Source: Psammoneis japonica (lineage: Eukaryota). From it: 57,030 nucleotides of DNA. Below the pieces are notes generated by a model. That model was given only the letters and a program-made list of their open reading frames with translations. It was not told where the DNA came from and did no database searches. A program made the translations under genes and the position numbers. The DNA is taken from assembly GCA_008632985.1 (NCBI GenBank), contig QPGO01000019.1, forward strand, positions 806,001 to 863,030. The letters are read 5' to 3'. The stretch's first letter is position 1; every line of letters starts with the position of its first letter. Below are positions 20,621-57,030 of this stretch, in pieces.

Positions 20621-20629
20621 TTTCCGCGC

Positions 20630-23600
20630 TCGCGCACTGCGATCCCGATCCCGACTGCGGGTTTGTTTTGATCAAATTTTGCAACTCCATGACCTGCATC
20701 CATGCCGTCATTGCCAAAGAACCACCAAGATGTGCCTCCGTGGTGCACATTTGCACACCCACATTTCTGACATCCATTTTCACCCCCGTGCAACTGCCAA
20801 TGTTCAGCTCATTGCATCCTCCTGCCCACGTCAAGAGCTCACTGCTTGGACAACCTCCCTTCAATGGCTCCACTCGCTGCCCCTGTCGCCCCCACCCTTC
20901 TGCGCCTCCCTCTGGCACAAACTCCCCCCTTCCTCCCGCCTCCAAGTCCTCCTCACCCTCCATCATCTCGTCCAATCGACTGTCGACTCCTCTGAGCCCT
21001 TCGACACCGACGACGACCCACCCCCTCCTTGGCAAACTGCCTCCGACCCTTTTTTCAAGCTCCTCTTCCTCTTTGAATCCCTTGTCCTCCACCCTCGACC
21101 CAAGCACTCCAACACCCCCCTTTCCACCACCATCACTCAACGTCTCTTCCTCTTCCGCAACGGTTCCATCCGCGCCCTCTACGACCAATCCCGTTTGATC
21201 CCTGCTCCCGACACATCCGACGAACCTCCCGACTTTGATGACACATCCTACACCCACTCCACCCAAGTTGCCGCCAACGTCAATGACCTCCATGCCGCCT
21301 GCGCCCGGGCCACCTCCTCCCTCCCCGTCGCCTCTCTCACCCCCGAACGCATGGAGCTTGTCAAGCAACTCTGCCCACCCCGCAAACACCCACCGCTTCC
21401 TTCCCCCCCATCCACCAGACACCACTGCTCTACCTCCTCCCCCCTGCACTTCACCGCCGACGACCTCCGCAAAGCCCTCGCTGAATGTCAACCAGGCAAA
21501 GCTCCCGGCGCCTTTGCCGATTCCACCGACCTGTTCAAGGCCTGCGCCCTCCACCGCCGCTCCACCCCAACCTCCACCTCATGCCCCTGCCTGCTCACCT
21601 TCAAACATCTGCTCGACCTCATTCTTGCAGCAGACATCCCTGCATCCATCAAGCCCGCCTTTTCTTCCAACTGCTTCCTCGCTCTCCACAAAGACTCCTC
21701 CAACCTTTCCAAACTTCGCCCCATCGGCGTCGGAACTGCCCTTCGCAGAATCATCGGCACCCTCATCATGTTCCTCTTTGCCGCCACCTTTGCTGCCAAC
21801 CTCCTCCTCTCGGCCAATTCGGAGTCGGCGTCAAAGGCGGTCTCGACCACCCAGTCGACACCACCCATGCCAACATTGAGCGATTCTTTGACCCAGACTC
21901 CACTCCAACCAAGGCCCTCCTCCTCCTCGACTTGTCAAATTGTTTCAACGAATGCTCCCGTGACGCTTGTCGCGACACCCTCGACAACTCTGACGAATGC
22001 CACCCCCTCATCCCTTTCTTCGACCCACTCCATCAAAACCCCAACACTTGCTGGTGCCGTGACCACCGCTTACAATGGTCCTCCTTCTCTCAGCCCGAAG
22101 GATTTGCTCAAGGCTGCCCCCTCAGCCCTGCCTTCTCCTGCCTTGTTTTGGCTCGTGTGTTCCAACCCATCAACGACGACCTGCATCGTCGACTCCCTCC
22201 CCGCTCCAAGTCCGCTGCCTCTTCTCACATCGATGACACCCACATCTTCCTTCCCTTCTCCCAGCTCCCCTGGTTCCTCAAGCGCCTTTCTACCTCCGGT
22301 CCCCAATTCGGCATCAAGCTCAACCCCTCCAAGACCCAAATTCTCACCTCCATCACCGGCTCCTCTCCCATCAACCGCCTTCCACCCTCCAACGCTGCTG
22401 CACTGTCCGAGGCCCTGGCCTTCCTCAACCCTCACAACGATCCCCACATCACACCCAAAATCACCACCGGCACTCGCTTCCTCGGTCGGCCCATCGGCTC
22501 ACCCGCTTTCGCCCTCGATTTCCTCCGCAATGAGGCCATTTCCTTCGCCACTGACCTTCATCGCCTCACCGTCCGGCTCACTGACAAACAAACACAGAGC
22601 ACCCTCTTCTGCAAGTGCTCACTCCCTTCCATCACCCACCTGCCATCTGCGGATGCATGCTGCAACCTTTCACCCTCCGACGACTTTCCACCTCCTTTTC
22701 AGTGGGCATCCCCCTTCGTCGACAAAATCATTGGCCACTCCCTGCGGTTCCTCACCTGCCTCACCCAACACACAGACCCCCTTCCATCTGCCTCCAAACT
22801 CATTGCCACCCTGCCCGTCTCTTTGGGAGGCATCGGATGTCGCGACATCTCCGCCGTCGCCATCCCTGCCCTCATCACCTCCCTCCTCCGCTCCATCCAC
22901 TGCACCAAACATGGCATCCCACCAACCGGTGGCGCCATCTTCCACCTTCCCTCAAGCCGCTCTTCCGCTCTCGGTTCATGGTCCAACCCCCGCTCCACCC
23001 TCTCCCTCTGCCAAATCTTCCGCCACTGCGCTCCCACCCTTCTCAAGCTCGACTCCCCCTCTTTTACCTCCCTTTCGCACGCTGTCGAACACCACAACCT
23101 ACGCGGTCTCTCACAGTGCCTCCACCTGCGCCATCACACACACCACACCCTCCCCTCAATCCTCACCGATCCTTCCATCCAACCAACACTCCCATCCCCA
23201 CTGTCGCCCCTCACAAGCCTGTGCCTTCACTCCCTGTCCCGCATCCCACACTCCAATTGCCTTCCGCCCCATCTTTTCACGATCCTCCTCTTGCGCAAGC
23301 TCCGTCTCCCTGTCATCCCACCCAACCTCTCCCAACACAACTGCCCATGCGGTCACGCCCACCCCGACCCATGCGGCGATCACGCCTTTGCTTGCTCCAA
23401 AATGCACAAAGGCCCCCCATCCAACCACATCCGTGACACGGTCCACACAATCATCGAGACCCTTGGTCCTCCATGCGGCCTCTGCCGATCCCGCCAACAA
23501 GTCTGCCTTGACCCTGCCGGACTCCTGCCCAACCACCCTCTAAAATGCCCCGCCAATGTTGGCGTCCAACTCACCCCCGGCTCCACACCACCAGACGCCC

Positions 23601-24295
23601 CATCCACCCATCAATTCACAGCAATTGACATCACCGTGCCGCCCGCTCCCCCGCCTCCTGCACCTGGTTTGCCTGTCCCTGAAAACCCACTTGACAAGGC
23701 TCACCTCAGCAGCACTCAGGACAAGCTCCTCGGCCGCTCTACATCCTCCGCCCACGGTTCTGACATCATCGATGCCACCAACCAAGCAGGCCTCTTCCTC
23801 CTCCCTTTCACCTTCGATCACCTGGGAGGCATCGGACACCACTTCCATCTTTTCTTTTTTGGTGCCTCCACCACTGCCTCCTCCTCCGCCCCCCCCCTCC
23901 CCCCCAAACCACCCTGGTCCCATCCATCCTCTTTCTCTAACTCTCAAGCATCCTTCTCTGCCTTCACCAACTCCCTTTTGGCTCCTTCCAACCTCCTCAC
24001 CCAATCCAACGCGGCCTGGAAACAACTTTCCCCCGCCCACTTCGGCTCCTCCTACCATGCTGCCACACCCCTACTTTGGGCTTCCCAAACCCTCAGCCTT
24101 AACTTTGGCTTTGCTCTCTCCAACCATCTCTCTACATGTCAAGCTTTCCTCCTCCGCCATCCCTCCGTCACCAACTCCTCCTCCCGACCGTCCGTCCGCA
24201 CCCTCGGCCAACCCTTTTTCTCTCCCTCTCCCAGCGCGCTCCGCGCGCTCCCTCCGCCACCTATTTCCCCAACACCACCACTACCGACCCCATAA
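20630..24295 (+). mobile_element. Non-LTR retrotransposon of RLE type (CRE-like): zinc finger, RT, CCHC, restriction-like endonuclease
   Basis: N-terminal C-x2-C...H-x4-H; LRPIGVG..LRRI, QFGVGVKGG, LDLSNCFN, GFAQGCPLSP, SHIDD (for YIDD), GIKLNPSK, LPVSLGGIG, CPCG...DPCGDHAFAC, and PAN...AIDIT (decayed PD...D). One frameshift near 21810; very C-rich coding strand. Confidence 0.85.
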
Positions 24296-29410: not shown

Positions 29411-29714
29411 TGTCGCGGAACATGACTCAGGCGGGACTCAGATGATTGGGTCCCGTTCACGAATGAAGAGTCACGTGATTTCTGGTCACAAGAATCACGG
29501 CGAACCGGGATGTTTGCGATCCAGGGACGATGGTCCCCCGTGATGTTTGACGTGACGTTTGGATGTGTTACTTTGAGTTTGACAGGACTGTAATTCAGAA
29601 GAAGTAGAAAAGTAGATCATAATTTAGCGAGAGTGAGAAAAGTGAAGACTATTAATTTTAGTTTTATGTGCTACTGACGAGGTGTTAGTAGTATCGGCAT
29701 CTGGTTGTCCAACA
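29411..29714 (+). repeat. 5' LTR
   Basis: tgtcgcggaa...ttgtccaaca; colinear with 34881..35184, 14 substitutions and no indels by manual alignment. Confidence 0.96.
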
Positions 29715-29773
29715 CGATATATATCGACAGTTTGTGGCAACACTACATTCGAGAGTAGTAAGTGAGAGAAGCG

Positions 29774-32700: not shown

Positions 32701-35013
32701 AGGATACGCTGAGAATCACTCGAGCGATACGTATATTGTTCAAAAGTTATCAAATCGTCGTTGTGTGTTGACACGCGACGTGGTATGGGAGTCTAAAAGA
32801 CGATATGATCACCTAGACCCCGAGACAGTGGTCGAAAAGCAAACTCCGCGAGTAACTTGGGCGGACGACGCAAGACCGTCAACAGTGGTTGAAGAGATAT
32901 CACGCCCCTCTCAGTCATCCGCAGACGACCCCGACTTTCATGATTCTCATTCACAAATTGAGGAGGGAGAAGAGAGTGCAACAGACGGCGAGGAATCAAC
33001 GGATAGCGAAGAAAGTGACTCCGAGATGGGTGCGCCACCTGACGGACCAGGACAGACGGATAAAGAATCAGCTGTGAATAGTCGATTGGAACGCGAGTTG
33101 AGCAAGCTGAGGACTTCTTATAACCCAGCTGGTCTCCCAAGCGACGACGAGGACGAGGTAGAAGCGGTGAATATGGTCGCAGGATATGTTGATCCGAAGA
33201 ATGATCGCGAAGCGATGACAGGCGACGAAGCTGACGAGTGGTGGAAGGGTCTAGTCACAGAATACGATGGCTTTTTCGACTTGAGAACTTGGATACTGGT
33301 CAAGGAAGCCGAATTGAAAGGTAAAAAGATATCCAAGCCGCTATCAACGAAGAACGTCTACAAAAAGAAATTACACGCGATAACAAAAGAGGTGCGGTGT
33401 CGCGTGCGCAACTGCATTCGGGGGTTCGATATGATACCCGGAGTTCATTTCGATGAATCTTTGCACCTACTCCGACGGATCATACTGTGAGACTCATATT
33501 GGCGATATCATTATGGATGCTGGAACAGTTGGAAGTCGATGATATCGACGAAGCCGAGAAGGAGTGGATTGTCGGGCATTTGTTCGATGTTGTGCAGGCA
33601 TTTCTGAACTCAGAGATGACTGGACCACCTGTACATGTGCATCTTCCCCCTATGTGGAAGGAGCATTGCGAATATAAAGGTTGGGAATACAACGAGAACG
33701 ATCTTATTTTGCTCGGAAAGGCGCAATATGGGCAAGTCGATGCCGCGAAGCGCTGGATTGACATGTTTGTCGGAATCATGACTGAAAAGGGTGGCGTCGA
33801 GCTTAAACGAAGCAAGACTGACCCTTGTGTGTTGTACCGTCATGATGACAAGGGGCAGTTGGAGATTATCATTTTGATTTATGTGGACGATGGTTTCATA
33901 TGTGGGAAGCCGGAAGTCGTTAAGGAAGCCAAGGACTATCTGGCGAAGAGAGTTAAGACACTGGACATTGGACGAATCGACACTCATTTAGGAATTGATT
34001 ATGAGTTGAAGAAAGACGAACACGGTTGGTACTTCGAGTGCAGCATGCGCAAGTACGTGGAAAAGATGGTTGCGGAGTGCGAACAACGCTTCAACAAGAC
34101 ACTTAAGGATTACGAGACACCTGGGGAGCCAGGGAAGACATTGATGAAGGCGGACGAAGACCATGAGCCAGTCGAGCAAAACGGATATCGAGCCTTCGTC
34201 GGAAAGATCCTATGTGCGATGTTGAAGGTCTTACCTGATTGCGCGAATGCGATTAGAGCGCTGACAATGCATTTGACGAATCCAACTAAGGATCACTGGC
34301 ACGCGCTGGACAGACTTATGGGACATCTGAAATTTCACTGTCAGCCGTTGAAGTTGAGGTCACCTTTAGAATTAAGGAGCACAGGGACATTCGACGCTGA
34401 GTGGGGGACGGACAAGAATGACAGAAAGAGCATTTCGAGTGACATTTCCACATTGGGCGGTACGTCGTTAACTAATTGGCAATCGAAGAAGCAGACCTCT
34501 GTGGCGCTGAGCAGTTGTGAAAGTGAGACCATAGCGGGCACGGCGTGCGCGCAGAGCATACAATTCCAGAATCATTTATTGGAAGAGCTGGCAGGTACGG
34601 ACATGTTGAAGATGCCGAGTTATGCGTACGGAGACAACGCCGCATCACTGTTTCTGGCTGTTAACAACCAAGTGGGACAGCGGACGAAACACATTCATGT
34701 TCGTGATAGACATTTGGGCGAGTTGGTTCAACGTGGAGAAATTGAACCACGTCATGTCAGTGCGGAGAAGAACCCGGCAGATGTCAACACCAAGAACGCG
34801 AAGATCGAAACGCACAAGAGACTAGCTCAGAACCTGTGTGACGGATTCGTGATGGTTGAACCGGAACCAATCAAGGAGGGTGTCGCGGAACATGACTCAG
34901 GCGGGACTCAGATGATTGGGTCCCGTTCACGAATGAAGAGTCACGTGATTTCTGGTCACAAGAATCACGGCGAACCGGGATGTTTGCGATCCAGGGACGA
35001 TGGTCCCCCGTGA
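29774..35013 (+). CDS. Gag-Pol polyprotein of the copia element (three apparent frameshifts)
   Basis: ATG 29774 (MSKEEQ...WSGK); CCHC knuckles CGKCGKKGHKSKFC and CFYCGKHRHRASDC; protease LLDSGS; integrase H..H..C..C, YLDTSGP, RIDNA, PQFNAAVER; RT YVDD; RNase H DAEWG..RKS, SSCESE, GDN. Frameshifts near 29845, 32560 and 33460. Confidence 0.92.
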
Positions 35014-35184
35014 TGTTTGACGTGACGTTTGGACGTGTTACTTTGAGTTTGACAGGACTGCAACTCAGAAGAAGTGGAAAAGTAGATCACAATTTAGCGA
35101 GAGTGAGAAAAGTGAAGACCATCAATTTCAGTTTTATGCGCTGCTGATGAGGTGTCAGCAGCATCGGCATCTGGTTGTCCAACA
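34881..35184 (+). repeat. 3' LTR
   Basis: Direct repeat of the 5' LTR, preceded by a polypurine tract. Confidence 0.96.
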
Positions 35185-35316
35185 ACTGCTGGAGGATTTC
35201 ACCTTCATTGCTGTCAACAGTTCCGGTCATTTGAAACTTCCATCACCTTTCTACAGTCAATTGTCTTAAACAAATCAATGGTCCTGCAGGTCGCAACTCT
35301 TCAGGGCCCCAAACAA

Positions 35317-36003
35317 TCAAAATCTGTCTTGTTGCAGCTCTCCAAAGACGGCCAAAAATTGTGTAGAAAATCGCTGAAAAGAGTCCGTGTTGCTCTGCCC
35401 GTGTGATGCACTCATTTGATGCGTGCGACCAACACACGCCAGTTTCCAACATTTGGAACAAACGACATGCTTGCACCCAACGAAACGAAACGAAACACCA
35501 CTCTCTGTTGAACAGCACTTCTGCAGTGTCCACTTGGCTGGCGACGGCAATTCTCGGCATGTGTGAAATGGTTCGTAGCACGTCAGTGCCCCCGGCTTGG
35601 CGTCGGTCTCTGGAGGCTTGTTGCAAAGTGGAACTTGGCAAACAGAGCATGTGTGTGATGTCTGCCTTGGATTGCGGTCGGGAAACAATGACACATGTTG
35701 TGCCTTTTTGTCCTTCCAGATTGTCGAGCTACAGTACACACAAAACCGCCGTAGTTGAGTCTTGCGGTCGTCACTTTCCGATGCCATAGTTGCTGACGCT
35801 TGGCTTTTCTGGCTCACATCAGAGAGTCTTTGTTTCTTTCTGGCTGCGGGTGGATCCATGAGTCCAACGGCAATCAACTGGCTGAATTTACACGGTTGAT
35901 GATTTAGATGGAATGTGCCGTTGACATTCTCATTGAGTCTCATTTGCATGAGCTCAGGATCAGTCACCCACTGTTTCCGAGTCCTCTTCTTCGATGCCTC
36001 CAT
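35317..36003 (-). pseudogene. ORF with piggyBac-type C-terminal cysteine-rich domain (TE-derived remnant or small gene), TpA-depleted
   Basis: RRFCVYC...RQTSHTCSVCQVPLC...CYEPFH matches the R.C..C...T.Y.C..C.V.LC...C...FH pattern, with the expected Tyr reading His. No DDD catalytic core visible. Confidence 0.55.
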
Positions 36004-41400: not shown

Positions 41401-41587
41401 TTTGTGCTGGGTCCTGTGCAGAAAATGTGCCAAATCTGCAGAGAATTGCCAGAAAGAAGGACAATGAGTGCACGAGCCAGCACAAGGCAGGCTTCGATGC
41501 CAGCTGTTCTCTGCTGAAAATTGTTCATGTGATGCTCAAATGAGGGTGTGTGTCATTGGCAGAAATGAGCAAAATGGTCTTGGGGGG
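38480..41587 (+). mobile_element. Heavily degenerate DIRS-like (tyrosine-recombinase class) retrotransposon
   Basis: Ordered remnants across frames: K.KRLT (~39615), SV.R, (L)PFGG..P (~39825), DD (~39918), E.P....LG (~40110), HSQW (~40570). TpA- and CpG-depleted. The assignment rests on decayed motifs only. Confidence 0.45.
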
Positions 41588-41659
41588 NNNNNNNNNNNNN
41601 NNNNNNNNNNNNNNNNNNNNNNNNNNNNNNNNNNNNNNNNNNNNNNNNNNNNNNNNNNN
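41588..41659. other. Assembly gap (72 N) adjoining a G run
   Basis: Run of n characters in the sequence. Confidence 0.99.
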
Positions 41660-42106
41660 GCAGGAGGGGGGCTGCGAGCAGGTGGCTGACGTCCACCAGA
41701 AAGCTCCTCCGTTGCAGACAGTTCCCTCCACCTCCTCCAACCTCTCTGGTGTGGAACAACTGCTCCAGTGGCAGCAAGGGAAAAAATGATTTGTCATTGG
41801 CGTCACAAGTGTGGCATGGCTGTCATGGTCGATGCGCCCGGGGCTCGACTCCACTTGTGCGTGCGTGGGAATCACATCATGCATTTTGTCCAATCATGGT
41901 GCCCCCTGCTCCCTTTCGGCAAACGCCGGCCGGCGCAAGTGTGCGGGCTCTGTCCGCCTGTCCGCCAAAATCTCCAGCCAAGCAACAAACAAAAAAACCA
42001 AAAAACGAAGACAACGCAATAAGCACAAGAACATTGTGCCTTGCCTTGGCGTCCCGCATCCCGCATCCCAATACAATACGGTAGCATATCCCAACCCAAC
42101 AAAATT

Positions 42107-43399: not shown

Positions 43400-46300
43400 A
43401 CACTGAAATATGTAACGAAGAACTCAGAGCACTCAGCCTGTGGAGAGCAGAAAGAATGACTCACAAACACTCAGAGACCCCTGTTGGCACTTGGGCAGTC
43501 AGTCATCATCTTTGTTCTCTGTCTGATTTCCCTCCTTGGCCTCCTTTCATGCATGCACCATGCCTCCTTTGCCAAGCCAACTGAGGATACATTGGTGCAC
43601 CTGAGTCAGGGGTGAGGGGGTGGACCAGCTTGCTGGATGGGTGTCAGACAGACAATTGCATCAGTGCAATGTCAGTTCAGTGGGTGGGTTTGCCAAGGAG
43701 GTTGGAATCAAGCTGGCACACCACATGTTGTTGGAATCAACACAGAGTTTTCACAGAGTTTGCAGTTGGACAAAGAGCAGATGGCTGGGAACCCCTTGTC
43801 AGGATGGTCCAAACAACATGCAACAAGACTGCAACCTCTCAGCACCCAGCCAAACATCACCACAGGAGTGCTCTTTCAAAAAATTCTTTTCAAAACAAAT
43901 GATGTGTTGGAGTGAATTGTGTGACTTGTCAGCCACCCACAATGTGGCAGAACAAACAAAACCAGAAAGCAGTGGGCATCATGGTGATGTTGATGTGCCA
44001 CACAAAGTGGCAGAAAAGTGTGCCATGAGTCATTTGCAACAAACAAACAGCACCTTGGAAAACAGCTGGTGGTGCTCACACTGCTCCAGTGCACCTCTTC
44101 CTTGCACATGTGACACAAGAGCAAAAAACAAGAGAGCAGTGCCAGACAGCCTTAAAAGCAACCAAACACTGTGAGCTGGCAATGACAAAATGGGTTTTCT
44201 TGCTGCTTCAGCCAGTTGGCAGCGTGTTTCTGACACAATGCCCCATGACTTGTCAAGACAGAGACAGTGCTTGCCCAGATTGCAAATGAATCTCAAAACA
44301 ATGCCTCTGTGGAAAAAGCTGACAATGACAGGGCCCACATCACACAAGTGTGCCATGGCCACTGAGGAGCAATTGTGCTGCATTGGTGTGCAAACAATCT
44401 TCCACAAAGAGGGTTTTTTTGTGCAAGGATTTGTGTGAGCCAGTCACAGGATGCTCAACATGCTGCATGGAGCAGGCACTGCAGCGCACATGGCAATGAA
44501 TCCCAAAACAACTTGTCAATGCATGCTCCATGCACAGTGAAAACAAAAGTGTCAGAGGAGCAGTGCATCTGTCATTCATTTGCAAGCCAAGAGCAGTTGA
44601 ACATTTTCAGCAACGTGCAAGGCATTGGTGTGGATTTTGTTGTTTTTGATTGTCCCAAGCTTGAAGAAGCCCAGCACAGGCCTCTACAAAATCCAGTGCA
44701 GACCTTGACAGTGTTTGCATTTGATGCATTGCAGCAGGCAGGCACTCACTCGAAATTGTGCCAGAGCTTGCACACACCATCCTGACAGAGACTCGCCACA
44801 AATCCACAGCTCTTTTCAGGCTTCCAAAGCCCTGAGGTGGTGCAAAGTAAAAAACATGTGGGGACTTTCTTCTGCACACCATTTTAAGTGAAATGGGAGT
44901 CACAGGAGCTGGTTGTTGCCAATGCTGTGTGTGCACATTTTTAAAATTGACACACAAAAGCACGTGAAGCTTTTTTTGGCAAACCACATGGCTGGTTGCT
45001 GGTGAAGTCACGTGTGCAATGCACAACATCAACTTTGTTTCAGCGATCACTCATTGTCATGCACTTCTCTTTTTGACATGACATGTTGTGCAAACAGCAG
45101 TGTGCTGCCAAGGCAAAAATGAGGGCCGATGCTTTTTGAGCACCCAGGCACTTCTTGTGCTGTCTCTTGGCTGCCCATCAAGTTGCTGTGAAGTTGTGCC
45201 TTTTGAAACATTTTCCCATGCAAGCAATCACTTCAAACCTCAGAGCAAAAACCATGACCAGTTTTGCCAATGACTCTGCACCAGCTTTTCTTTTTGTTGA
45301 CTGACCAAACAGACCAAAACTTTTGCAAAACAGCTTGGCAGTTTTCACCAGAGGAGTCAAGGAGACAGACATTGGTTGAGAGCACACACGGCACTTGGTT
45401 GGCAGAAAGAAGTGCAGCATTTGACAGCATCCTGGGAGACCATTGACGTGCTGCCATTTTTTGTGCAGAAAGCAAAGAAATTCATCACACAGTGATTCAG
45501 TTCTGCAGCATGTAAAAGTTGCATCAGCTTTGACTTGCTCAACTAAATTTATAAAACGGAAACCTGGAGCTCAACCGACCTTGAATTTTTCAACAATTCC
45601 TTGCAATCACGCATGAAATTAGATTTCATGGAATCTCACCAAATGACAATGAAAGGCAAGTTTCAAGATGTTGTTGCAACCTCAAAACTGCAGTGGCATT
45701 TGGAGCACCTTCCACGACCCTCCACTTTGCTTGTTTGAGTGACCCTTCCTCAGATGTGCTCCAAATGGTGAGCTCATTTTGACAAAGCATCAGCTTCAAA
45801 TTGGTGCTTGATTTTCTGTGTGGAGTCTGCCATGACTTCCAGCATTTGACACCACATGGCAAACACTTGATTGTAAAATGAGCTCAAACTGGATTGACAT
45901 GATCGTCTTTTCCCTTTCCGCTTCTTGCTGTTTTTGAATGCTTTTGATGTGAAACTGTCACCGTGTGTGCAGTGCTGTCTCATGATTAAAAGAGCTCTTT
46001 GCAAAATGGATTTGTGCAGGTTGCAGCTCTCAAACCAAGTCCACATTCCAAAATCTTTGTGCTGCTGAGCTGCTTTTGACCGTCATTCACTCCTTTCTGT
46101 CTTGATGATTGATGTCATGGGCATTCAATGTTGTCAATGAGAATTCTTTTTTGTTTCAATGGATGAAAGATGTCTCAATCCACAAGACAAACAAGTTCAA
46201 AGCAGAGTCAGATGTTTTGATCACACCTTTTGCTGGAGACCGTGGTGATGAGTGCAGGTCACTCACTCAAGTCACCAACAGGAAAGACAGAGACTTGGAA

Positions 46301-48630
46301 ACATGTTGCACTCCTTTGGTGATGTTTGAAACAGATTGGAGTGTCGATGCAACATGCAGTTGTTGTTCTGTCCAACATGAAGATTTCTCCTGAAGGTCAT
46401 TCATGGCCTCAGTGAACTGCACCCCAGATGATTGGATCACGACATTTGTCAACAATGACGCCCTGAGATGTCAAGTGGTAGAGAAGCAAAACACTGTTCA
46501 GTTGGGTGTTTGCAATGCAAATGTGAGGTTAAAAACCAGCAAACAACTGGACATTGCAACATGTGTGTCAGGTGTCAACACGCCTCAAGCTGTGAGACAA
46601 ATGACTTGCCATTGTGATCACCATCAATGACTGGACCAATCACAGATCACACAACAACAACGGGAATGAGGTCTCTGCTGCCTCTTCCTGACTGCATGAA
46701 TCCACTGACACAATTGGCTGTGTTTTTCAAGACAACAGCAGTTGGCATTGCACCGTGCAAGTGCGTTTCTGCTGTCTGCACTGCCGCTCTTTGCTCAGTG
46801 CCAAAAATGCACAAGTCATCAAACAACATTCATCCTTCTCAAGAAGGTGACACACAGTGATCAGCAGCCTTTCATGCCCACAGCCATGAATGAAAAGGGG
46901 TTCTGATGTGTCACACAGCAACAGCGCAGACTGCCAGGATGAGACAGAAGCAACAAACTGACAGTCATGGAGGTGGCAGTTGGTGTTTTTTGAATTGGAA
47001 TTTTGTGGATTTCTCTGCACGTGCACGCTGTCCCCCATTTTTTAAATGTCCAGGTCTCTGCATTTGTTGGTCATGAAAAATGTGGAATGATCCTCATGCA
47101 GAATTGTGCATGCAGCAAGAGAGCTTCATGAAACTCTGACATCAATGCAAGAAATTTCCACACAAGTGACACCATCCGCAATTTGTTGGTCATGCTGCAA
47201 ACCAGAAAATCTGCAGTGGAACCCCTGCTTCTCCTCCCTCCCACCATCATTGCATCACTCCTTCTTCTCACCTCCGCATGGTCTGCCTGCTCCCTCCCTC
47301 CCCGCTCTGGCTGAGGCGCGCCACTTGTCAAGCTGCGTGGGGTTGATGTTTCTCAGAACCCTCTGCTTCTTCTTCTTGCAGCCCCTCTTTCTTGCCCCAC
47401 CCAACATGAGGTGGCATCTTCCTCCTCCCCTTTGTCATCAATCACCTTGGTGGCTGGCCTTGGCTCTCTGTCATTGACATCTCTTTGGCTCCACCTGCTC
47501 TCAGCCCAAACTCCCTTGGCCCTCCTCCTCTGCACTTCAAAACTCTGGTGCTTCCCACTCAGCATCTTTCTCCATGCATTGGCTTCTTTGCCCACCCCCT
47601 GTGCCTTCTGCCAGCTTTGCCTGAAACCACCTTTCCAGTGAGCCACACTTTGGTGGCATGCTTTGCGCTCCTCCTCTTCATCTCAATGGGTTGTCCAAGT
47701 GCTGAGGGGCAGCCCAGCATGCCATCTTTCATGCATGCCCTTTGCTCACTCTCCTCCCTCTGCACTCCTTTTTCAAGCAGACCGCAGTTGTTTGAATGAT
47801 TTCTTGTGTCTTGGCAATGTCTGCTCTTTTGCTGATCATGAATTTTCAAGAATTGGCTGATCCAGTTGTTGAGCTTGACACCCTTGATGGCTCCAGCCTT
47901 TGTCAGGTCATGTCACTGGGGTTGGGAAAGACCCATCATGCAGCAGCTGCTCTTCTTGTGTTGGCAGTGAGTGCAGCATTCCACATCCATTGACTGAGCA
48001 TCATGCAAACCATCTCATCATTCAAAATGCATGCATGTCTTGTCTGACTCTGCACAAAGTCCTTTGAGTGTGATTTTGTCATGGACAGGGAGTTTGCCTT
48101 TTCTCACAAAGATTAAGAGCACCCAGGTGGTTGGCCAGTTAGAGTGCGCAAAATTAGTTTCCATGTGGCTTTGTGGAAAATTGGGTGCAGTTGACAATGG
48201 CAGCAGCTGGTCTTTACTCTCATCACAACAAAGCTTGGGGGGAGTGAAGACAGCCCAGCATGGGTGTGCAGCCAAGAGCATGCTCAAGGAGAGAGCAGCA
48301 ACTGCCCATGCCACACATTGGCAGGCAAGAATTTGGAGCATGCTCTGGCCCCACTGGCCTGGCTCCTTTGCCCCAATCTCTGGGGAGCAGAAAGCTCAGC
48401 AAGGTTTTGGGACTGCTTGGGCAGGGCCCCCCAAACTGGCAGCTCTGATCTCCCATCACAAAGACAACTGTGCTGGCACACCACCAGCTTCAATGACAGT
48501 CACAGCAGACCGCCTTTGAAAAGTGTCTTCACAATTCTCACCACACACAAGAGGAGGCAATCTGTTCTGGTTTGCAACATGACCAACAGGAAGTTCTCTC
48601 ATGCGATTCTGCTTGAGGACTGGCTTTCTG
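43400..48630. mobile_element. Nested degenerate repeats (unclassified), TpA- and CpG-depleted
   Basis: Depleted composition throughout, with many overlapping spurious ORFs; no domain confidently identified. Confidence 0.5.
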
Positions 48631-48806
48631 TTTGTGACTCCAACACACATTTTCAGTTTGCTGCGCATGCACACTGCAGTTGCCCCTCACAATTTGCTGC
48701 TGTGCATGATGTTTCTCACACAGGAACCAATCCAAACAACAACAAAATGATCAAACAAAGATGATGAAATCCTCTTCATTCTTCCTTTTTGTGACAGGGA
48801 AGGCAG
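48631..48806 (+). repeat. Left copy of a ~176-bp direct repeat flanking the inverted Penelope pair
   Basis: tttgtgactc...gtgacagggaaggcag, nearly identical to 54320..54496. Confidence 0.92.
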
Positions 48807-48814
48807 CTCTGTGT

Positions 48815-51300
48815 TGGGGTTCTCTAATGTGCTGAGCACCTTTGGCACTGACAAGATTCTGTTTTGTCTTGCCTGGCCTGCAAAGCTCGACGATGCAAGC
48901 TTTCGCTTTCACTTCATCGGTGCGGTTGGCATTTTTCTCGTGAGCCAAAAAAGTCGAGATTGGCATTTTCAATGGCTGAGGTTGCAGCTGACCTCACTTG
49001 CCGTTAAAAAACAACGGGCCATTGGGAACATGCCGATGCACGCTGTGCGCACAGTCTTTGCCCAAAACTCCATTGTGGAGAAAAAGGTGGGCGTCGTCTT
49101 CTCAGTTGATGGTCTGAGCCTGCGAGCTAAAGACCAGATGGCATGGACCAGCCTGCTGTTGTTTGGTGATTGGGGTTTTGTGCAACCCTAAATTCAAAAA
49201 AACTCAAACGGGCGTAAGCCGAAGCACCGCAGGCGCGGCAGGCAGCCCATTTGAGTTTTTTGCCGGAGTTGAGTCATTGCTGCAATTGGCAAGTCATTGG
49301 CTCAGAGCTCCGGTGACAGCAGCTCAATGTGTTGTGAGACCTGGTGTCCTTCTGGTTCATCAAGACATGTTTTCATTGAGGCGTCTCTCAAATTTCGTGG
49401 TCACGAGCATGCTGTCACAAATCTGTCAAAGCCAGAGTGCCAAGCCAGTGTGTCGTTGTATGTGCATCAGATCGATGCTCGCGGTGTGCCTCTTGGGTGG
49501 TGTTCCTTGTGGAAGAACAGGACTGAGCTCGAATTGTTGGTGGGCGTGGTGTCTGGTTGCTGGGGGCGTTGATCCATCCGCTCTGCAGCTTCCATGAAGA
49601 GATGACGGATGGTGTTTTGGTCGTGACCTCTTGCGACGAGTCTCTTCGCAAAGTTTTCTGCGGCGTTGGTGTGATCGCGTGCGTCAGAATTTTGCGTGCA
49701 GAACCATCGCAAGTTTCCATGTGTGATGCTCTTCAGGACTCCTTGTGGGTGGGCGGAGCTGGAAGGTGTGCACAAAAAAAGATTCATTGGTTTTTGGTGA
49801 GTTTTTGCAACAATGCATCCGTCTTCTCCAATCTTTGTTTCCAGGTCCAGGAAGATTGCAGAGGCAGAAAGTGGGGAGGCAACCCATTGAAGGGGGCCTG
49901 AGTTGTTAAGCTCGTTTTTGAAAGCTTCCCAGGCATCTCCACTGTTTCCAGTCCATGCTCCAAGTGTGTCATCAATGAACCGTCCATGGTGCAGGAGGTT
50001 CGGGGTGAAGTTTTTCGTTGTCACTTGCCGTTCATGCAGCGCTTTGTGCAGTGTGGTGCACATGCAAGCGGTGCTTGTGCCCACAGCCGTTCCGGTCGTC
50101 TGCAGCCAGAAGGTGTCGTCAAATTGTGTGATGTTGCTGGTCATGACGACCTTCAAGGTTTCCAGAAAAAAGTGTTTTGGGAAGGCTTCTGGTGTCTCGT
50201 CAGGGCATTCTGAGAACCAGGTTTCAAATGCTTGGAGTGCATGATTCGCATCAATGTTGGCACACATGCCCACTGCATCAACTGTGAACAGTCGTGCATC
50301 TGGTGGCAGCTCTTTCAAGGCTCGTAGGTCGGCGAGGACTTGGCATGAGTCTCGGATGAAGGACCAGGAGAGTGCAAGCAGCTGTTTCATTTTATGATCA
50401 AGCCAAGTCGAAAATGTTTCATTGAAGCCACCGACACAACTGACGATTGGCCTTGTTCTCCAGGGTGAGTTGTGGACTTTAATGGTGACATGGAATTGGG
50501 GGACGCGGTGGGGCAGTTTGAAACTTCTGGTGAAGCAAGTGCATTCTGCGGCACTTAAAATGTTTTTTGCTTCATCACATGCTTTCTTGAGCTTTTCTTT
50601 TGCATCCGCTGGGAGTTGGTCTTTTTTCTCCAGAGGCAGTTGTTGGCAGTTCCGCTTGTTCAGCAGATGGTCTGTCAAGGCTCTTGACATGCAGGTTTTT
50701 CGCTCAAGGATTGCGGGCCCAAGATTTTTGTTGCTGAGGCATGCAATGAATCTCCTGTCTGCCTTCAGGGTTTTTAAGAGGCGGCATTGCATGGGTGTGA
50801 GGTTGCAGCATCTTCGGCCGGCCACAGCTGGGTGGCTCGTGCATTCAACTTGTGCTGCAAAGTCCATCATGCGGAGTTCGAGGTTGCCTTTTTCTATTTT
50901 GGGTGGGTCCCAGTTTGACTTGATGCACAGTCCTGGAATGCAGTCATCACCCGGGGTTTGGGCATCTGCGCTCGTAAGGAAATGTCTAAGGTGCATTGAT
51001 CGACAGAGCTGGTCCATGCTTTCCTCAATTCTTGGGCTTGGTTTTGGTGTTTCGATGCAGCACTTGTGTCCAAGGCCAAGCAGCGTTGTGAGTCCCAGCA
51101 GGGGTTGCATGGTTGTGCACAAATTGTGGCAGGCCAAGTTGTCAGGTTGGTTGAAGCAGTCGGGTGCTTGCATGTTTCCGAGTGCACTGGCTGCGTTCTG
51201 CCAGGGGTTTAGATTTGGGTTTGGTGTGAACCCAAATGTGCGCTGGCAGTGATTGTTGGCGATTGTTTCAGTGGTGTCAATTGGCTGTTGGGTGTTCTGG
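48815..51300 (-). mobile_element. Penelope-like retroelement, 5'-truncated minus-strand arm
   Basis: NKNLGP, RPIVS, DAVGMCANI (for D..SMY.NI), QFDDTFWLQ..GTAVGT, RFIDD, FLDL, KTHQKPMNLFLC.P..SAHP, RPRNLRD. Reverse complement of 51815..54313. Confidence 0.88.
48870..48931 (-). ncRNA. Hammerhead ribozyme-like motif (type I), mutated core
   Basis: Minus strand reads tgccaaccgca-ccgatga-agtgaaagc-gaaa-gcttgcatcgtcgagc-tt-tgcaggccaggca; the core reads CCGATGA instead of CTGATGA. Confidence 0.6.
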
Positions 51301-54300
51301 TGGGATGCCTTTGAAGAAGCAACACTTTGCTCACAACGGCAAATTAACCACGAGCGTGAGATGGCACAAGCAAACGCCAGAGTTGCCGCGGTGTGGTGCT
51401 CTTGCCAGAAAAAGGAGGCAGCGGAAGCAACGGCTGCAGCTCTGGAACAAGAGCCAACTGCAACACCGCCCCTCCTCAGGCAGGCAGCATGCAAAGAGAC
51501 AGAAATTGCAAACAAGGATGAGAAAAAGCCACAAGGCAAGAACAAGCAAAAAAAAAAACGCAAAGGGCGACCGGAAAGCCCCACCGGCAGTGCAAAAACA
51601 AGGCCCGAGAAAGAAACGCCCAGCAGCACAAAAAGAAAATGGTCCGCCAAGCAAGAAATGAAGATTCGAAAGAAACTGCAGACAAAACAAAGGCCCTCAA
51701 GACAACAAGAGGAAAAAAGGCCAAGGAAATGCAAAAGGACCTCGAGGCGCACAGCGCAACGGCGGGCAAAGCAACTCCAGAAACAAGAAAACAGGCGGCA
51801 GGTGCAAATGACCTGCCAGAACACCCAACAGCCAATTGACACCGCCGAAACAATCGCCAACAATTGCTGCCAGTGTACATTTGGGTTCATGCCAAACCCA
51901 AATCTAAACCCCTGGCAGAACGCAGCCAATGCACTTGGAAACATGCAAGCACCCGACTGCTTCAATCGACCTGACAACTTGGCCTGCCACAATTTGTGCA
52001 CAACCATGCAACCCCCGCTGGGACTCGCAATGCTGCTGGGCCTTGGACACAAGTGCTGCATCGAAACGCCAAAACCAAGCCCAAGAATTAAGGAAAGCAC
52101 AGACCGGCTCTGTCGATCAATGCACCTCAGACATTTCCTTGTGAGTGCAGATGCCCAAACCCCGGGTGACGACTACATTCCAGGACTGCACGTCAAGTCA
52201 AACTGGGACCCACCCAAAACAGAAAAAGGCAACCTCGAACTCCGCATGATGGACTTTGCAGCAGGGGTTGAATGCACGAGCCGCCCAGCTGCGGCTGGCC
52301 GAAGACACTGCAACCTTGCACCCATGCAATGCCACCTCTTAAAAACCCTGAAGGTAGACAGGAGATTCATTGCATGCCTCAGCGACAAAAATCTCGGGCC
52401 CGCAATCCTTGAGCGAAAAACCCACATGTTAAGAGCCTTGACAGACCATCTGCTGAACAAGCGGAGCTGCCAACGACTGCCTCTGGAGAAAAAAGACCAA
52501 CTCCTGGTGGATGCAAAAGAAAAGCTCAAGAAAGCACATGAGGAAGCAAAAAACATTTTAAGTGCCGCAGAATGCACTTGCTTTGCCAGAAGTTTCAAAC
52601 TGCCCCACCGCCTCCCCCAATTCTACACCACCATTTAAGTCCACAACTCACCCTGGAGAACAAGGCCAATCGTCAGTTGTGTCGGTGGCTTCAATGAAAC
52701 ATTTTCGACTTGGCTCAATCATAAAATGAAACAGCTGCTTGCGCTCTCCCGGTCCTTCATCCGAGACTCATGCCAAGTCCTCGCCGACCTACGAGCCTTG
52801 AAAGAGCTGCCACCAGATGCACGACTGTTCACAGTTGATGCAGTGGGCATGTGTGCCAACATTGATGCGAACCATGCACTCCAAGCATTTGAAACCTGGT
52901 TCTCAGAATGCCCTGATGAGACACCAGAAGCCTTCCCAAAACACTTTTTTCTGGAAACCTTGAAGGTCGTCATGACCAGTGACATCATGCAATTCGACGA
53001 CACCTTCTGGCTGCAGATGACCGGAACGGCCATGGGTGCAAGCACCGCTTGCATGCAAGCCACACTGTGCAAAGTGCTGCATGAACGGCAAGTGACAACG
53101 AAAAACTTCACCCCGAACCTCCTGTGCCATGGACGGTTCATTGATGACATGCTTGGAGCACATGGACTGGAAACAGTGGAGATGCCTGGGAAGCTTTCAA
53201 AAACGAGCTCAATGACTCAGGCCCCCTTCAATGGGTCACCTCCCCACTTTCTACCTCTGCAATCTTCCTGGACCTGGAAATGAAGATTGGAGAAGACGGA
53301 TGCATTGTTGCAAAAAACGCACCAAAAGCCAACGAATCTTTTTTTGTGCATGCCTTCCAGCTCCGCCCACCCACAAGGAGTCCTGAAGAGCATCACATGT
53401 GGAAACTTGCGATGGTTCTGGATCGAAGAGACTCGTCACAAGAGGTCACGACTAAAACACCATCCGTCATCTCTTTGTGGAAGCTGCAGAGCGGACAGAT
53501 CAATGCCCTCAGCAACCAGACACCACGCCCACTGACAATTCGAGCTCAGTCCTGTTCTTCCACAGGGAATGCCACCCAAGAGGCACACCGCGAGCATCGA
53601 TCCAACGCGCATGCAACGATGCACTGGCTCGGCACTCTGGCTTTGACAGACTCGTGATGGCACACTCGCGACCACGAAATTTAAGAGACACCTTGATGAA
53701 AACACATCTCGATGAACCAGAAGGACACCAGGTCTCATGATGTGTTGAGCTGCTGTTACCGGAGCTCTGAGCCAACAACTTGCCAATTGCAGCAATGACT
53801 CAACTCCGGCAAAAAACTCAAATGGGCCACCTGCCGTGCCTGCGGTGCTTTGGCTTGCGCCCATTTGAGTTTTTTTGAATTTAGGGTTGCACAAAACCCC
53901 AATCACCAAACAACAGCAGGCTGGTCCATGCCATCCAGTCTTCAGCTCACAGGCTCAGACCATCAACTGAGAAGACGACGCCCACCTTTTTCTCCACAAC
54001 AGAGTTTTGGGCAAAGACTGCGCGCACAGCATGCATCGGCACATTCCCAATGGCCCATCATTTTTTAACAGCAAGTGAGGTCAGCTGCAACCTCAGCCGT
54101 TGAAAGTGCCGATCTCGACTTTTTTAGCTCACGAGAAAAATGCCAACCACACTGATGAAGCGAAAGCGAAAGCTTGCATCGTCAAGCTTTGCAGGTCAGG
54201 CAAGACGAAATGGAGTCTTGTCAGTGCCAAAGGTGTTCAACACATTGCAGGTTGGGCAAGACGAAGTGGAGTCTTGTCAGTGCCAAAGGTGTTTGGCACA

Positions 54301-54313
54301 TTGGAGAACCCCA
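51301..54313 (+). mobile_element. Penelope-like retroelement, plus-strand copy with longer basic 5' region
   Basis: Same RT motifs (SDKNLGP, GTAMG, RFIDD, SAHP, RPRNLRD). About 55-bp internal deletion near 53420 and a ~49-bp tandem duplication at ~54190..54300 relative to the other arm. Confidence 0.88.
54141..54202 (+). ncRNA. Hammerhead ribozyme-like motif (type I)
   Basis: CTGATGA at 54152; short stem II gc-gaaa-gc; GAAA; stem III gcttg/caagc; UH; interrupted stem I tgcc...aca / tgc...ggca. Hammerheads are an established feature of Penelope-like elements. Confidence 0.72.
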
Positions 54314-54319
54314 GTGCCA

Positions 54320-54496
54320 TTTGTGACTCGCAACACACATTTTCAGTTTGCTGCGCATGCACACTGCTGTTGCCCCTCACAATTTGCTGCTGTGCATGAT
54401 GTTTCTCACACAGGAGCCAATCCAAACAACAACAAACTGATCAAACAAAGATGATGAAATCCTCTTCATTCTTCCTTTTTGTGACAGGGAAGGCAG
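54320..54496 (+). repeat. Right copy of the ~176-bp direct repeat
   Basis: Matches 48631..48806 with a few substitutions and a 1-nt indel. Confidence 0.92.
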
Positions 54497-54939
54497 TTCC
54501 CATGTGCTGGTGCAGGGACAATGAGGTGTGCCAAATTGGAGATTGTTCAAGCGTGTGAGAGGATGCAAGCTCTGCCAGGGGTTTCTTCCCTGGCACATGT
54601 TTGCACCTTTTCCAAACCCCCAAAAAGAGTGTGCCAAAGATGCCAGTCAAACCAAGTTGATTTGTTGGGATGGAAAAGCCATCATGTCTGCCACAGCATT
54701 CCAAGGCAAGAGTGGGTTGCCTGCAGCATTGCTTGCGGGCCCCTGGGCAAGTTTGCCCAGATCAGCCAGCTTGCTCATTTTTTTGTCAGGCCACAGCCAG
54801 CAGCCTGGATTCTCTGGTGACTGGGGGACTGTGCTGCCCCACCCTGAAGGCTGGGAGAAGGCAAAAAAAGTGGACAAAAGCAGAGCAAGAGTTCTCTTTA
54901 GATCAAACAACAGCAGTTGATGCACAACTCTGCTTCAAT

Positions 54940-55019
54940 GTTGCTTCCTTGTGCAAATCATCATGAAGACAGCAACAAGACCCGCTGGACACTCCAGAAA
55001 AGAAGCAGAACCAGAATTG
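54940..55019 (+). pseudogene. Duplicated fragment of the helicase gene 5' end
   Basis: Colinear with 9350..9429 (aaatcatcatgaagacagcaacaag...cagaaaagaagcagaaccagaattg), encoding MKTATRP...RKEAEPEL. Confidence 0.85.
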
Positions 55020-55229
55020 ATCTGCCATGACACCACCAGCCAGCAACTTTCTCTGCCCAGTCAGCTGGGCTGCAACATGGGAGATGCTGGCAGCATGGCC
55101 CAGTCCAACGGAGCAGCAACAAGACTGCACACAGTGTTTTGCCATTTGATGCACAGGCGCCGTCAATGGCTCAAATGCATTTAGTTAAAATTGATGGAAC
55201 ATGCAACAGGATCAGCCAGATCACATGCT

Positions 55230-57030
55230 GCAGTGTTGAAGCCCGTGCCCCACACATGAAACTTTGAGGAGATGCTGCCCTTGCTTCATCACAACAGCAA
55301 CCAGTGGATCATTTGAAAAATGAAGACCAAAGAACTGCCTGTCATTGTTGGAAGATGTGCTGCAGCAGATCTTGCAAATGAAGTTCTCCACATGGTGGGC
55401 AGACACATTGATGCCAGACCTCACGTTCAATGCCACTTTCAAATGCTTCGGCATTTTGATTTACAAAGTTGAGACAGAAGCAGACATGTGTCACTGTTCA
55501 TGGACCCACATGATTGGTTTGGATTTCTCTGCACTGAGCTCTGTTGCGCAATGCTTGGGAAACATCCCAACCATGCTGTGAGTTCCAAGCATGTGCATGA
55601 CCCCAAGATTGCTCAATTGATTGAACCTCTTCTTTTCTGCATTGCAAGCAACACAAATGCAAAGGAGAAGTTGGAGTCAATTTCCCTGGGTGAGGGTGAT
55701 TCCCAACCATGGGTCTTCAGAACATGCTCGATGCAGGTGCAGGCATTGATCGTAACTGCATCATCATTCTGGATGATGCCAACACTGTTGAAACTCATGC
55801 AAAGGCCAAGGCACTTGAAGGGGGGGATTCTTCAATTGCCAGTTGGAGTTGTTTCCCAATGTGATCATGTGTCTTGATGGCAATGTCATCGGCCAGCGCA
55901 GCAAGGGCAAAATGGTCAACTTGGTGGAGGAGCAGCACTTTGGTGCCATTGCAGAGGCTGGAGCACGTGCATTTGTTGTGCACAGTGTTCCAGAAGAGGA
56001 GCTTGGCATCAGCAAGGATGGCATTGATGTGCTTTTCCCAAAGTGCGCCACTTTCAGGGTGTCCTTGTGGGGGGTGAAGGAGTGGCAGGAAGTGGGTGGG
56101 GTCAAGATCCTCCCAAATTGCTTTTTGCACCATTCACGGCAGGGGCGGTGTTGGTCGCCACAAAGATGGGATGTGTGGGGCGTGGCAAGTGTGCACCACA
56201 TGCATCCTGAGCATCACCTCCAAAGATGCAGCAGCAAAGTCCAGCACTGAGTGCAACAAACATTTGTTGTGTGGCTTGTTCAACACAGGCAGAGGCATGT
56301 CAAGGCAAATTTGCACAGGGTGGGTGCCGCTTTCCATGATCCATCCCCCCATTGTCACTGGCAGCTTTCTCCAGTTGTCTTCATCTGACATTGCCAGCGG
56401 GTTGCATGACAGCAGCGCCTTCAGGACAAGGTTGGGGAGGTCCATGCATGCCAAGTGCATGAAATTGGTCAAGTTGCTTGTGTCAGTCAGCTTCCCATTT
56501 GAGCCATGTGGAGAGCTCCTGCAGTTGGCAGCGGGTGAAATGATCAAGTTCCACCTCTTCATCAGTCATGACAACACATGACATGGCATTGATGTGTGTG
56601 CAGAATTGTCCATTGGGGCGATGTCTTCTGAGAAGTCATCCTTGGGATGTGGGATGGATGCAACAATTTGCACTTTGGTGAGGGACGCTTCAAGGATGTT
56701 CTCATCAATGAGATTGGCCTTGGGGGTGAAGCATTGATGTTCATCCATTGCTTGATGCAAGGCGGGGAGTCCAGGTGACATTTGGGTGCAAAGTGATTTC
56801 AAAAGTCAGGATTTCTTCCTGGAAAACTTGGCGCAGTGTGTGTTTGGCATTGTCCATGGCAAAGACTTTGTGCTTGTTGATCAACACAATGCATGTGCCA
56901 ACAATCTTGTTCCATGTGGCTTGAGGAGCAGAGAACAGGGCCAAGGTGGGTGACTGATCTTTGACGCCAGATTGCAGACTCTGTCCATCAAGTTGCAGGT
57001 TGAAAGGACAAGTCCATGTGTCCAGTCTTG
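55230..57030 (-). mobile_element. Degenerate Ty1/copia reverse transcriptase remnant, a different family from the intact element; runs off the window
   Basis: QGHPESGALWEKHINAIL, LLHQVDHFALA (for RQVDDF) and FNSVGIIQ...CIEHVLKTHGW (for FNGVDI.Q...YI..L..HGW). Confidence 0.8.

Follow-up and report, generated by a model that had tools for sequence, protein, structure and literature searches.

Probable in-place hypermutation of TpA in retroelements and their surroundings in the genome of the diatom Psammoneis japonica

An inverted pair of retroelement copies was studied in a 57,030-nt stretch of the genome of the diatom Psammoneis japonica (assembly GCA_008632985.1, contig QPGO01000019.1, positions 806,001 to 863,030 of the forward strand; this whole stretch is called the window, and its own coordinates are used throughout). 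One of the two copies contains an open reading frame (ORF) of 610 codons without a single tyrosine. Taking the observations together, we consider it probable that the pair was subjected in situ to a region-limited, strand-symmetric hypermutation, which changed TpA to TpG or CpA in each copy separately and was accompanied by a slower decay of CpG. As judged by sequence comparison, the direction of the changes, their dinucleotide specificity, their strand symmetry, the independence of the two copies, the confinement to blocks and the recurrence in four unrelated retroelement sequences are established.

The pair forms a large inverted repeat with 83-95% complementarity by segment and 515 nt between its arms. 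Both the left arm (L, 48815..51300, minus strand) and the right arm (R, 51816..54313, plus strand) have the 3' end outward, and their reverse transcriptase (RT)-like ORFs run outward from the centre, on the minus strand in L and on the plus strand in R, the copies being head-to-head. The observed/expected ratio of TA is 0.10 in L and 0.13 in R, that of CG 0.60 and 0.58; 34 TAs remain in the two arms. The L-arm ORF (49470..51299, minus strand) has 111 homologues with a best identity of 49%, and the R-arm ORF is disrupted by a TAA (52636-52638), by an indel of 2 nt near 53160 and by the loss of 47 nt that are present in L at 49649-49695. In the L-arm ORF Tyr is absent (0/610) and Cys and His make up 4.6% and 4.3% of the residues, compared with 3.9% Tyr and 1.4% Cys in the first 60 homologues. 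Across all 111 homologues the Tyr content is 1.4-5.5% (median 4.0%), and none falls below 1.4%.

When the arms were aligned as DNA (2428 columns, 92.3% identity), 179 of the 187 mismatches were transitions and 8 were transversions. There were 52 pairs of adjacent mismatches, of which 45, comprising 90 mismatches, set TG of one arm against CA of the other (25 TG/CA and 20 CA/TG; hereafter doubles). In 5000 trials with 187 randomly placed mismatches, adjacent pairs averaged 14.2 and numbered at most 29; the value of 52 was never reached.

The original prediction had listed eight codons with Cys in one arm and His in the other, and two more at which one arm still has Tyr, and had traced them to an ancestral Tyr hit independently on opposite strands. 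All these codons were located in the arms. Positions given below are codon numbers in the L-arm ORF, coordinates are those of the first base of the L and the R codon, and residue counts refer to 96 aligned homologues, i.e. those of at least 450 amino acids among the first 100 of the 111. By these counts, six of the eight reciprocal pairs go back to Tyr: GLC/GLH (position 125; TGC at 50927, CAC at 52189; Tyr in 76 homologues), KTC/KTH (position 203; 50693 and 52423; Tyr in 94), TLH/TLC (position 418; 50048 and 53068; Tyr in 59), LLH/LLC (position 437; 49991 and 53125; Tyr in 41, Phe in 34), ITH/ITC (position 527; 49721 and 53398; Tyr in 21, Phe in 24) and EHHP/ECHP (position 600; 49502 and 53570; Tyr in 54). 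KAC/KAH (position 241; TGT at 50579, CAT at 52537) belongs to a hydrophobic/aromatic column with Tyr in 11 homologues and Arg in none, and was probably Tyr as well. The remaining pair, RRC/RRH (position 164; 50810 and 52306), favours Arg (21 Arg, 6 Tyr), so that the reservation attached to the prediction, namely that TG/CA pairs can also come from CG, was justified for this site and not for most of the others. Tyr was indeed present in the R arm at DDC/DDY (position 120; TGC at 50942, TAC at 52174) and QFH/QFY (position 270; CAT at 50492, TAC at 52624). At most of the sites, therefore, the homologues carry Tyr and not Arg, the comparison on which the prediction had staked its case.

The loss of Tyr was selective. 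In the 193 columns in which one residue occurs in at least 60% of the homologues, the conserved Tyr was retained in 0 of 13 columns in L and in 2 of 13 in R, with Cys or His in its place in 11 and 8 columns, respectively, whereas other conserved residues were retained in 144/180 (L) and 142/180 (R) columns (Fisher's test, 4.8e-9 for L and 5.7e-6 for R). Conserved residues with AA contexts were kept, Lys in 5 of 7 and Asn in 8 of 9 columns. The doubles were polarised by translating both candidate ancestors and counting the homologues in support of each. For the 29 doubles inside the ORF, which fall in all three codon phases, TA was ancestral in 21, CG in 2 (position 164, Arg; position 301, Asp), and 6 were ambiguous. 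Doubles outside Tyr codons include Ile ATA changed to ACA/ATG pairs at positions 488 and 511, and NNT|ATG at the invariant Met 406. Polarisation of the single differences gave, for CG, 10 ancestral, 1 derived, 11 ambiguous and 9 synonymous cases and, for TA, 4 ancestral, 1 derived, 5 ambiguous and 2 synonymous cases. At the DNA level, contigs assembled from a public sequencing run (a single sample with unrecorded platform, which may be the source of the assembly itself) contain sister copies with TA where the arms read TG or CA. Seven such places were listed, and three of them (49673, 52772 and 53056-53058) give TAC Tyr codons.

It is extremely improbable that ordinary CpG decay was the only process, all TGY/CAY pairs having arisen from Arg codons (CGY) by deamination of 5-methylcytosine (5mC) in each arm. 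The arms do show CpG decay: singles of the type CG/TG or CG/CA number 53, the conserved Arg columns at positions 103 (CAC/CAC; Arg in 74 homologues) and 532 (TGG/TGG; Arg in 84) were converted, and position 164 favours Arg. However, the 53 singles together with 63 shared CGs predict about 5.6 doubles compared with the 45 seen, the homologues assign TA to 21 doubles and CG to 2, the residue missing from the protein is Tyr and not Arg, and the TA observed/expected ratio of the arms is 0.10-0.13. When 7 shared TAs and 18 TA singles were included in the count model, about 39 of the 45 doubles were assigned to TA, and conversion per arm was estimated at about 0.90 per TA and about 0.30 per CG. The ancestral TA density calculated for the arms was 40.3/kb, compared with 38.7/kb in gene blocks, and the rates in the arms exceeded background per base 213-fold for TA and 33-fold for CG. 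On the evidence of these comparisons, decay of CpG to TpG or CpA is a second, slower component in the arms. The slower loss presumably reflects 5mC deamination in silenced DNA; diatom transposable elements are described as methylated in the part of PMC9998398 that was available.

The two arms were hit separately. Both arms are converted at 14 Tyr-type columns; they agree in state at 8 of these and disagree at 6, which approximates the 1:1 ratio that independent hits on either strand would produce. This agrees with the independent opposite-strand hits after duplication that had been predicted, since conversion preceding the duplication would have left shared states only. Moreover, a transposition-competent copy would need its invariant Tyr residues, which suggests that conversion followed insertion. 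The ratio of TG to CA outcomes was 45:40 in L and 34:42 in R, and their order was random within each arm. No strand-coordinated runs of TG or CA, as would be left by a processive single-strand editor, were found in the arms (41 runs compared with 43.3 expected in L, and 37 compared with 38.6 in R).

The reciprocity described by the original prediction is real, and the arms proved to be one local case of block-wide TpA loss in the window. The window is a mosaic in which gene blocks (TA observed/expected 0.35-0.78; CG 0.51-1.22, mostly near 1) alternate with depleted blocks at 1-1750, 7500-9000, 18500-21000, 38500-41900 and 43400-57030, with sharp edges that are resolved to one or two 250-nt bins. 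Outside the arms, the depleted blocks contain 0-5 TA and 0-5 CG per 250 nt, with higher values at the edges and in 20501-21000, and their TG and CA observed/expected ratios are about 1.7-2. Densities in depleted and gene blocks are 2.9 vs 38.7/kb for TA and 10.9 vs 58.7/kb for CG, whereas AT, AC and GT are unaltered. By counts in 250-nt bins, the block to the left of the pair (43401..48810), which was the target of its insertion, is depleted in both TA and CG; bin 48751-49000, which extends into the L arm, has 7 CG. The block to the right (54320..57030) has 5 TA in 2711 nt (observed/expected 0.03; CG 0.19). Between the arms lies a unique centre (51301..51815) with 1 TA in 515 nt. Its Lys/Arg/Glu-rich coding sequence, in a plus frame, runs on into the R-arm ORF.

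A direct repeat of about 170-180 nt adjoins both outer ends of the arm pair. The left copy (48641..48809, 169 nt), which resembles a target-site duplication, adjoins the outer end of the L arm, and the right copy (54331..54499) is 98% identical to it. None of the four aligned differences between the copies is of TA or CG type, and both copies are devoid of TA, hence the target had already been converted before the pair was inserted. The arm pair and the long flanking duplication look like the product of one insertion event. The layout, with 3' ends outward and the duplication at both sides, would fit a 'two-sided' insertion, in which each of the two staggered nicks in a single target starts target-primed reverse transcription. 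Only the R arm has, at its outer end (54189-54300), a 56-nt tandem duplication with copies that are 89% identical.

Two further observations were made in depleted blocks. At 47478-47479, 48053-48054 and 48482-48483 CA and TG are exchanged between the window and contigs from the public run, and no second copy of this sequence was detected in the window; two alleles, strains or paralogues would then have been converted independently, which hints at a recent process. A 238-nt tandem duplication at 7654-8060, in the depleted block between an ABCG gene and a DEAD gene, has copies differing mostly by TG/CA, TA/CA and CG/TG changes.

An artefact of sequencing or assembly, in which symmetrically modified bases at TA and CG were miscalled as transitions and the consensus fell on TG or CA at random, would imitate both the random choice of outcome and the block limits, and the platform of the supporting run is not recorded. 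Nevertheless, we regard this explanation as very unlikely. K-mer contigs of the public run (depth about 30-50, longest 315 kb) repeat the TA-free sequence of the flanks, including a 781-nt contig over 54330-55108 with 6 differences, and the same run also holds the TA-bearing sister copies. The window contains runs of 72 N at about 41.5 kb and of 1 N at about 20-21 kb, both within depleted blocks. They suggest a scaffolded assembly with trouble in such blocks, probably one made from short reads, and in Bigelowiella natans the identical signature came from Illumina data according to the available part of the report of Mettrop et al. (bioRxiv 10.64898/2026.01.13.699255).

Loss of TA was also seen in other retroelements of the window. 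A long interspersed nuclear element (LINE)-like ORF with an RVT_1 domain (21485..24295, plus strand) encodes 1 Tyr in 936 residues, compared with 1.6-3.7% Tyr in 22 homologues. Its TA observed/expected ratio is 0.05-0.12 and its CG ratio 0.73-0.99; TA was lost and CpG kept, so that the two depletions are separable. At three conserved columns Leu was changed to Pro via CCA. The sense strand of this element is C-rich (GC 0.60, GC skew -0.5). In the right flank, an old Ty1/copia-type RT remnant (55798..56133, minus strand) has 305 relatives at E<=0.001 (HMMER), and the four long relatives that were tested all contain RVT_2. Its changes include Y40>TGC, Y24>CAT, L38>CCA, I26>ACA and R35>CAC. Searches with the copia, LINE and arm proteins (tblastn) found no more remnants within the window.

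The clearest view of the process comes from a young Ty1/copia element (29411-35184) with gag, protease beta-barrel and RVT_2 domains and normal composition. Its 5' long terminal repeat (LTR; 29411..29714, plus strand) is unmutated and served as reference for the 3' LTR (34881..35184, plus strand). The LTRs differ at 14 positions in about 304 nt, with no transversions, and 13 of the changes are A:T>G:C. Ten of these are at TpA, two at TpG (of 28 TpG; both to CpG) and one is TpT>CpT; the only other difference is one CpG>TpG. Thus 10 of the 14 TpA were converted, 8 to CA and 2 to TG, a ratio based on too few events to be read as strand bias. In the target duplication, ACTACT of the left copy is matched by ACTGCT in the right copy. 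Partial conversion is limited to the 3' LTR and about 1 kb to its right (35034-36000; TA 3-4 per 250 nt), a region which may be a block caught midway through conversion. A block boundary inside the LTR, considered on the ground that the proximal 152 nt are identical, was rejected, as this stretch contains no TA. These comparisons indicate that conversion is fast relative to ordinary substitution and acts on DNA in place.

The two LTRs bear directly on the question of homology. Repeat-induced point mutation (RIP)-like, homology-triggered mutation of duplicated DNA could be invoked because the arms are a large duplication, and diatom DNMT4 enzymes are described as related to fungal RID in the available part of PMC9998398. 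Yet of two identical LTRs only the 3' one was mutated, which means that the process is not homology-driven; flank sequence with no second copy detected in the window is equally depleted, the hypermutated nucleocytoplasmic large DNA virus (NCLDV) region of B. natans is single-copy as far as it is described in the preprint text at hand, and RIP consists of C>T changes that make TpA, the dinucleotide destroyed here. A RIP-like origin is therefore highly improbable. Hardly less improbable is ADAR-like A-to-I editing of element transcripts or hairpin RNA, with reverse transcription fixing the edits. Double-stranded RNA could arise from the inverted repeat, and A>G with a 5' U/T neighbour resembles the ADAR preference cited in bioRxiv 10.64898/2026.01.13.699255, as far as the accessible text goes. 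But editing of one strand predicts a single outcome per arm, and both TG and CA were found in random order; furthermore, flanks that are not part of the element, target duplications and one of two LTRs were affected, and AA contexts were spared.

Context effects were seen for both dinucleotides. In old blocks TTAA keeps 0.60 of its normal density, CTAA/TTAG 0.22 and GTAA/TTAC 0.12, while the remaining NTAN classes keep 0.00-0.05. A rule in which only the +1 base decides which TAs survive fails, as CTAG was wholly lost while CTAA survives. The most refractory CG context is GCGC, with 0.53 retained. Changes of T to C at TpG, which make CpG, are rare, being found in the LTR and at one ORF site (position 505); they may help account for persisting CpGs. 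Taking into account that TA is gone and CG kept in the LINE and the LTR, that conversion in the arms is 0.90 for TA and 0.30 for CG, and that both are gone in old blocks, the loss of TA precedes that of CpG.

The same change of TpA to TpG or CpA could also proceed through a modified thymine, TET/JBP-type oxidation giving 5-hydroxymethyluracil or 5-formyluracil, which would mispair with G. In duplex DNA T>C and A>G are indistinguishable, a few T>C changes were found at TpG in the 3' LTR (2/28), TpA is the favoured site of thymine hypermodification in dinoflagellates and kinetoplastids, and 5-formyluracil does mispair with G. Against this stands that the only study of the signature, in its accessible part, proposes adenine deamination, likewise without proof (bioRxiv 10.64898/2026.01.13.699255). 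We consider the thymine route unlikely.

Hypermutation at TpA, of which the Cys/His reciprocity would be the imprint in the codons, probably took the following course. Two copies were inserted head-to-head into DNA that was already TA-free, and each arm was then hit separately, TpA becoming TpG or CpA by A:T>G:C changes on either strand. Conversion was roughly 200-fold faster than background, and faster than CpG decay in the same blocks, the adjacent genes being spared. The agent may be enzymatic adenine deamination in DNA by an ADAT2/TadA-like protein, as proposed for B. natans in the part of that report available, and it may be directed by chromatin state (silenced chromatin) rather than by sequence homology. 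Dead ORFs stay open, since no sense codon can become TAA, TAG or TGA by A>G or T>C changes.

Several points weigh against this interpretation. The polarisation depends on protein homologues of 29-50% identity and a few contig variants in place of an ancestor at the DNA level, and the platform of the single run that supplied these variants is, as said, unrecorded. The pair at position 164, one of those in the original prediction, and 2 of the 29 doubles derive from CG. Seven shared TAs survive, compared with 1 predicted by a simple model with no context effects. As the first 152 nt of the LTR lack TA, the block edge there is placed only to about 300 nt. Finally, loss of CpG in the same places is absent from the B. 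natans report, as far as its available text goes, and may be a separate process.

The composition of the depleted blocks affects gene prediction. DNA free of TA has only TGA stops, and very long meaningless ORFs result, such as a 901-codon frame at 49467-52172 (minus strand) that runs antisense through the centre and part of the R arm; ORF length is therefore no evidence of a gene in these blocks. No ORF of the depleted blocks matched Pfam above the curated cut-offs. The matches at E<=0.01 (DUF6155, Med12-LCEWAV and Zn_ribbon_recom) were sub-threshold and unrelated. The genes of the window are intron-poor and encode an ABCG transporter, a DEAD helicase, two DUF6824 proteins, a MYND-finger protein and a sulfatase. 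There is also a SET-domain gene, whose closest protein clusters are mostly from Bacillariophyta.

The arms had been labelled Penelope in the original prediction, an assignment that could not be established. Neither the arm ORF nor six homologues gave a Pfam match to an RT or GIY-YIG domain: the arm ORFs matched only DUF6809, below threshold (E 0.0025, 19.1 bits compared with a cut-off of 27 bits), and six full-length homologues matched no Pfam family, GIY-YIG included, at E<=0.01. With NCBIfam there was only a sub-threshold match to Drt3a, and the arm-ORF profile had no match below E 0.1 among PDB sequences. In an Rfam scan of 48000-55000 at E<=1 no hammerhead ribozyme was detected, the only two matches being at chance level; hypermutation could have erased one. 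The AlphaFold2 model of one homologue (P0001) had a pLDDT of 92, and its top Foldseek matches (E 2.6e-9 and below, TM 0.3-0.5) were RTs of telomerase and of group II introns. Judging from this model, the fold is compatible with the RT of a Penelope-like element (PLE), membership being unproven. The arms may resemble PLEs in their RT-like ORF, with a predicted fold nearest to telomerase and group II intron RTs, and they have the head-to-head arrangement with an inverted upstream copy that is typical of PLEs. PLE clades that lack the endonuclease (EN-minus) exist.

Within the literature searched, TpA-specific A:T>G:C hypermutation has been reported once before, for integrated viruses of one chlorarachniophyte in a preprint of 2026. 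The present case widens it to a second major eukaryotic lineage and a second class of target, and displays the end state, i.e. blocks with essentially no TA, sharp edges, and ORFs that are open but lack Tyr. LTR pairs, target duplications and inverted twin copies are natural clocks, which here show a fast process acting in place. For diatom genomics, the results are a warning that neither length nor composition of ORFs in such blocks is evidence of genes, and that ageing of transposable elements by CpG will mislead there. A broader idea is that Stramenopiles and Rhizaria share a defence, perhaps ancestral to the SAR group (Stramenopiles, Alveolata and Rhizaria), in which a DNA adenine deaminase targeted to chromatin domains would erase TpA from silenced mobile DNA over a span in which other sites hardly change, outrun 5mC decay and leave Tyr-free ORFs, with TTAA and GCGC refractory. 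The same ADAT2-like enzyme might also carry out C>T at CpG; deamination of C in DNA by ADAT2 proteins is cited in the available part of bioRxiv 10.64898/2026.01.13.699255. We put this idea forward as a possibility, and a rather doubtful one. If it were true, long Tyr-free 'zombie' ORFs would be called as genes by gene finders. The question of the enzyme is open to experiment, since genetically tractable diatom species exist.

Among known systems, RIP of ascomycetes is similar in that fast, dinucleotide-specific transitions kill transposable elements and leave compositionally distinct blocks. RIP, however, is homology-dependent, acts by C>T mainly at CpA and makes TpA and stop codons, whereas here TpA is destroyed by A:T>G:C, no stops are made and one of two identical LTRs was hit. 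CpG decay of methylated transposable elements is present here as well (about 0.30 conversion per CpG in each arm, and a CG observed/expected ratio of 0.1-0.2 in the old blocks), but it cannot remove TpA or Tyr codons and predicts about 6 doubles, not 45. Hyperediting by ADAR and editing by APOBEC likewise give clustered, deaminase-type transitions in retroelements, ADAR with a preference for a 5' U. Such editing takes place in RNA or cDNA prior to integration and is strand-specific, whereas in the window both strands, the flanks and the target duplications were changed in place.

The nearest parallel is the TpA-restricted hypermutation of integrated NCLDV and virophage DNA in B. natans (Mettrop et al., bioRxiv 10.64898/2026.01.13.699255), which is described here from the part of the preprint available. 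Mutation-accumulation lines yielded 231 mutations in two integrated viral regions; 230 were A>G or T>C, every one of them on TpA, and the rate was about 1000-fold over that of the rest of the genome. Elsewhere the genome has clusters that are poor in TpA and rich in CpA+TpG, and its coding sequences that are poor in TpA are enriched in RT and DDE domains. An ADAT2 homologue was proposed as the agent, which is unproven. Diatoms, stramenopiles, CpG and TTAA are unmentioned in the text available, and no report of the TpA signature in diatoms was found in the open-access PMC and bioRxiv literature. The two cases differ in several respects. The host here is a diatom (Stramenopiles) and not a chlorarachniophyte (Rhizaria), and the process struck at least three kinds of retrotransposon, together with the DNA around them, instead of viruses; depletion is near saturation (TA observed/expected 0.0-0.1) compared with a Rho of 0.45 in the NCLDV region; CpG is also lost in the same blocks and TTAA is refractory; and the B. 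natans changes were observed de novo, whereas those described here are deduced from comparisons. In the window as in B. natans, the changes are A>G or T>C, i.e. nearly all A:T>G:C, are restricted to TpA, give TpG or CpA depending on which of the two strands is hit, are region-limited with genes spared, and occur at rates orders of magnitude over background, as estimated for the window from comparisons. The long-term trace is likewise the same, namely depletion of TpA with enrichment of CpA and TpG.

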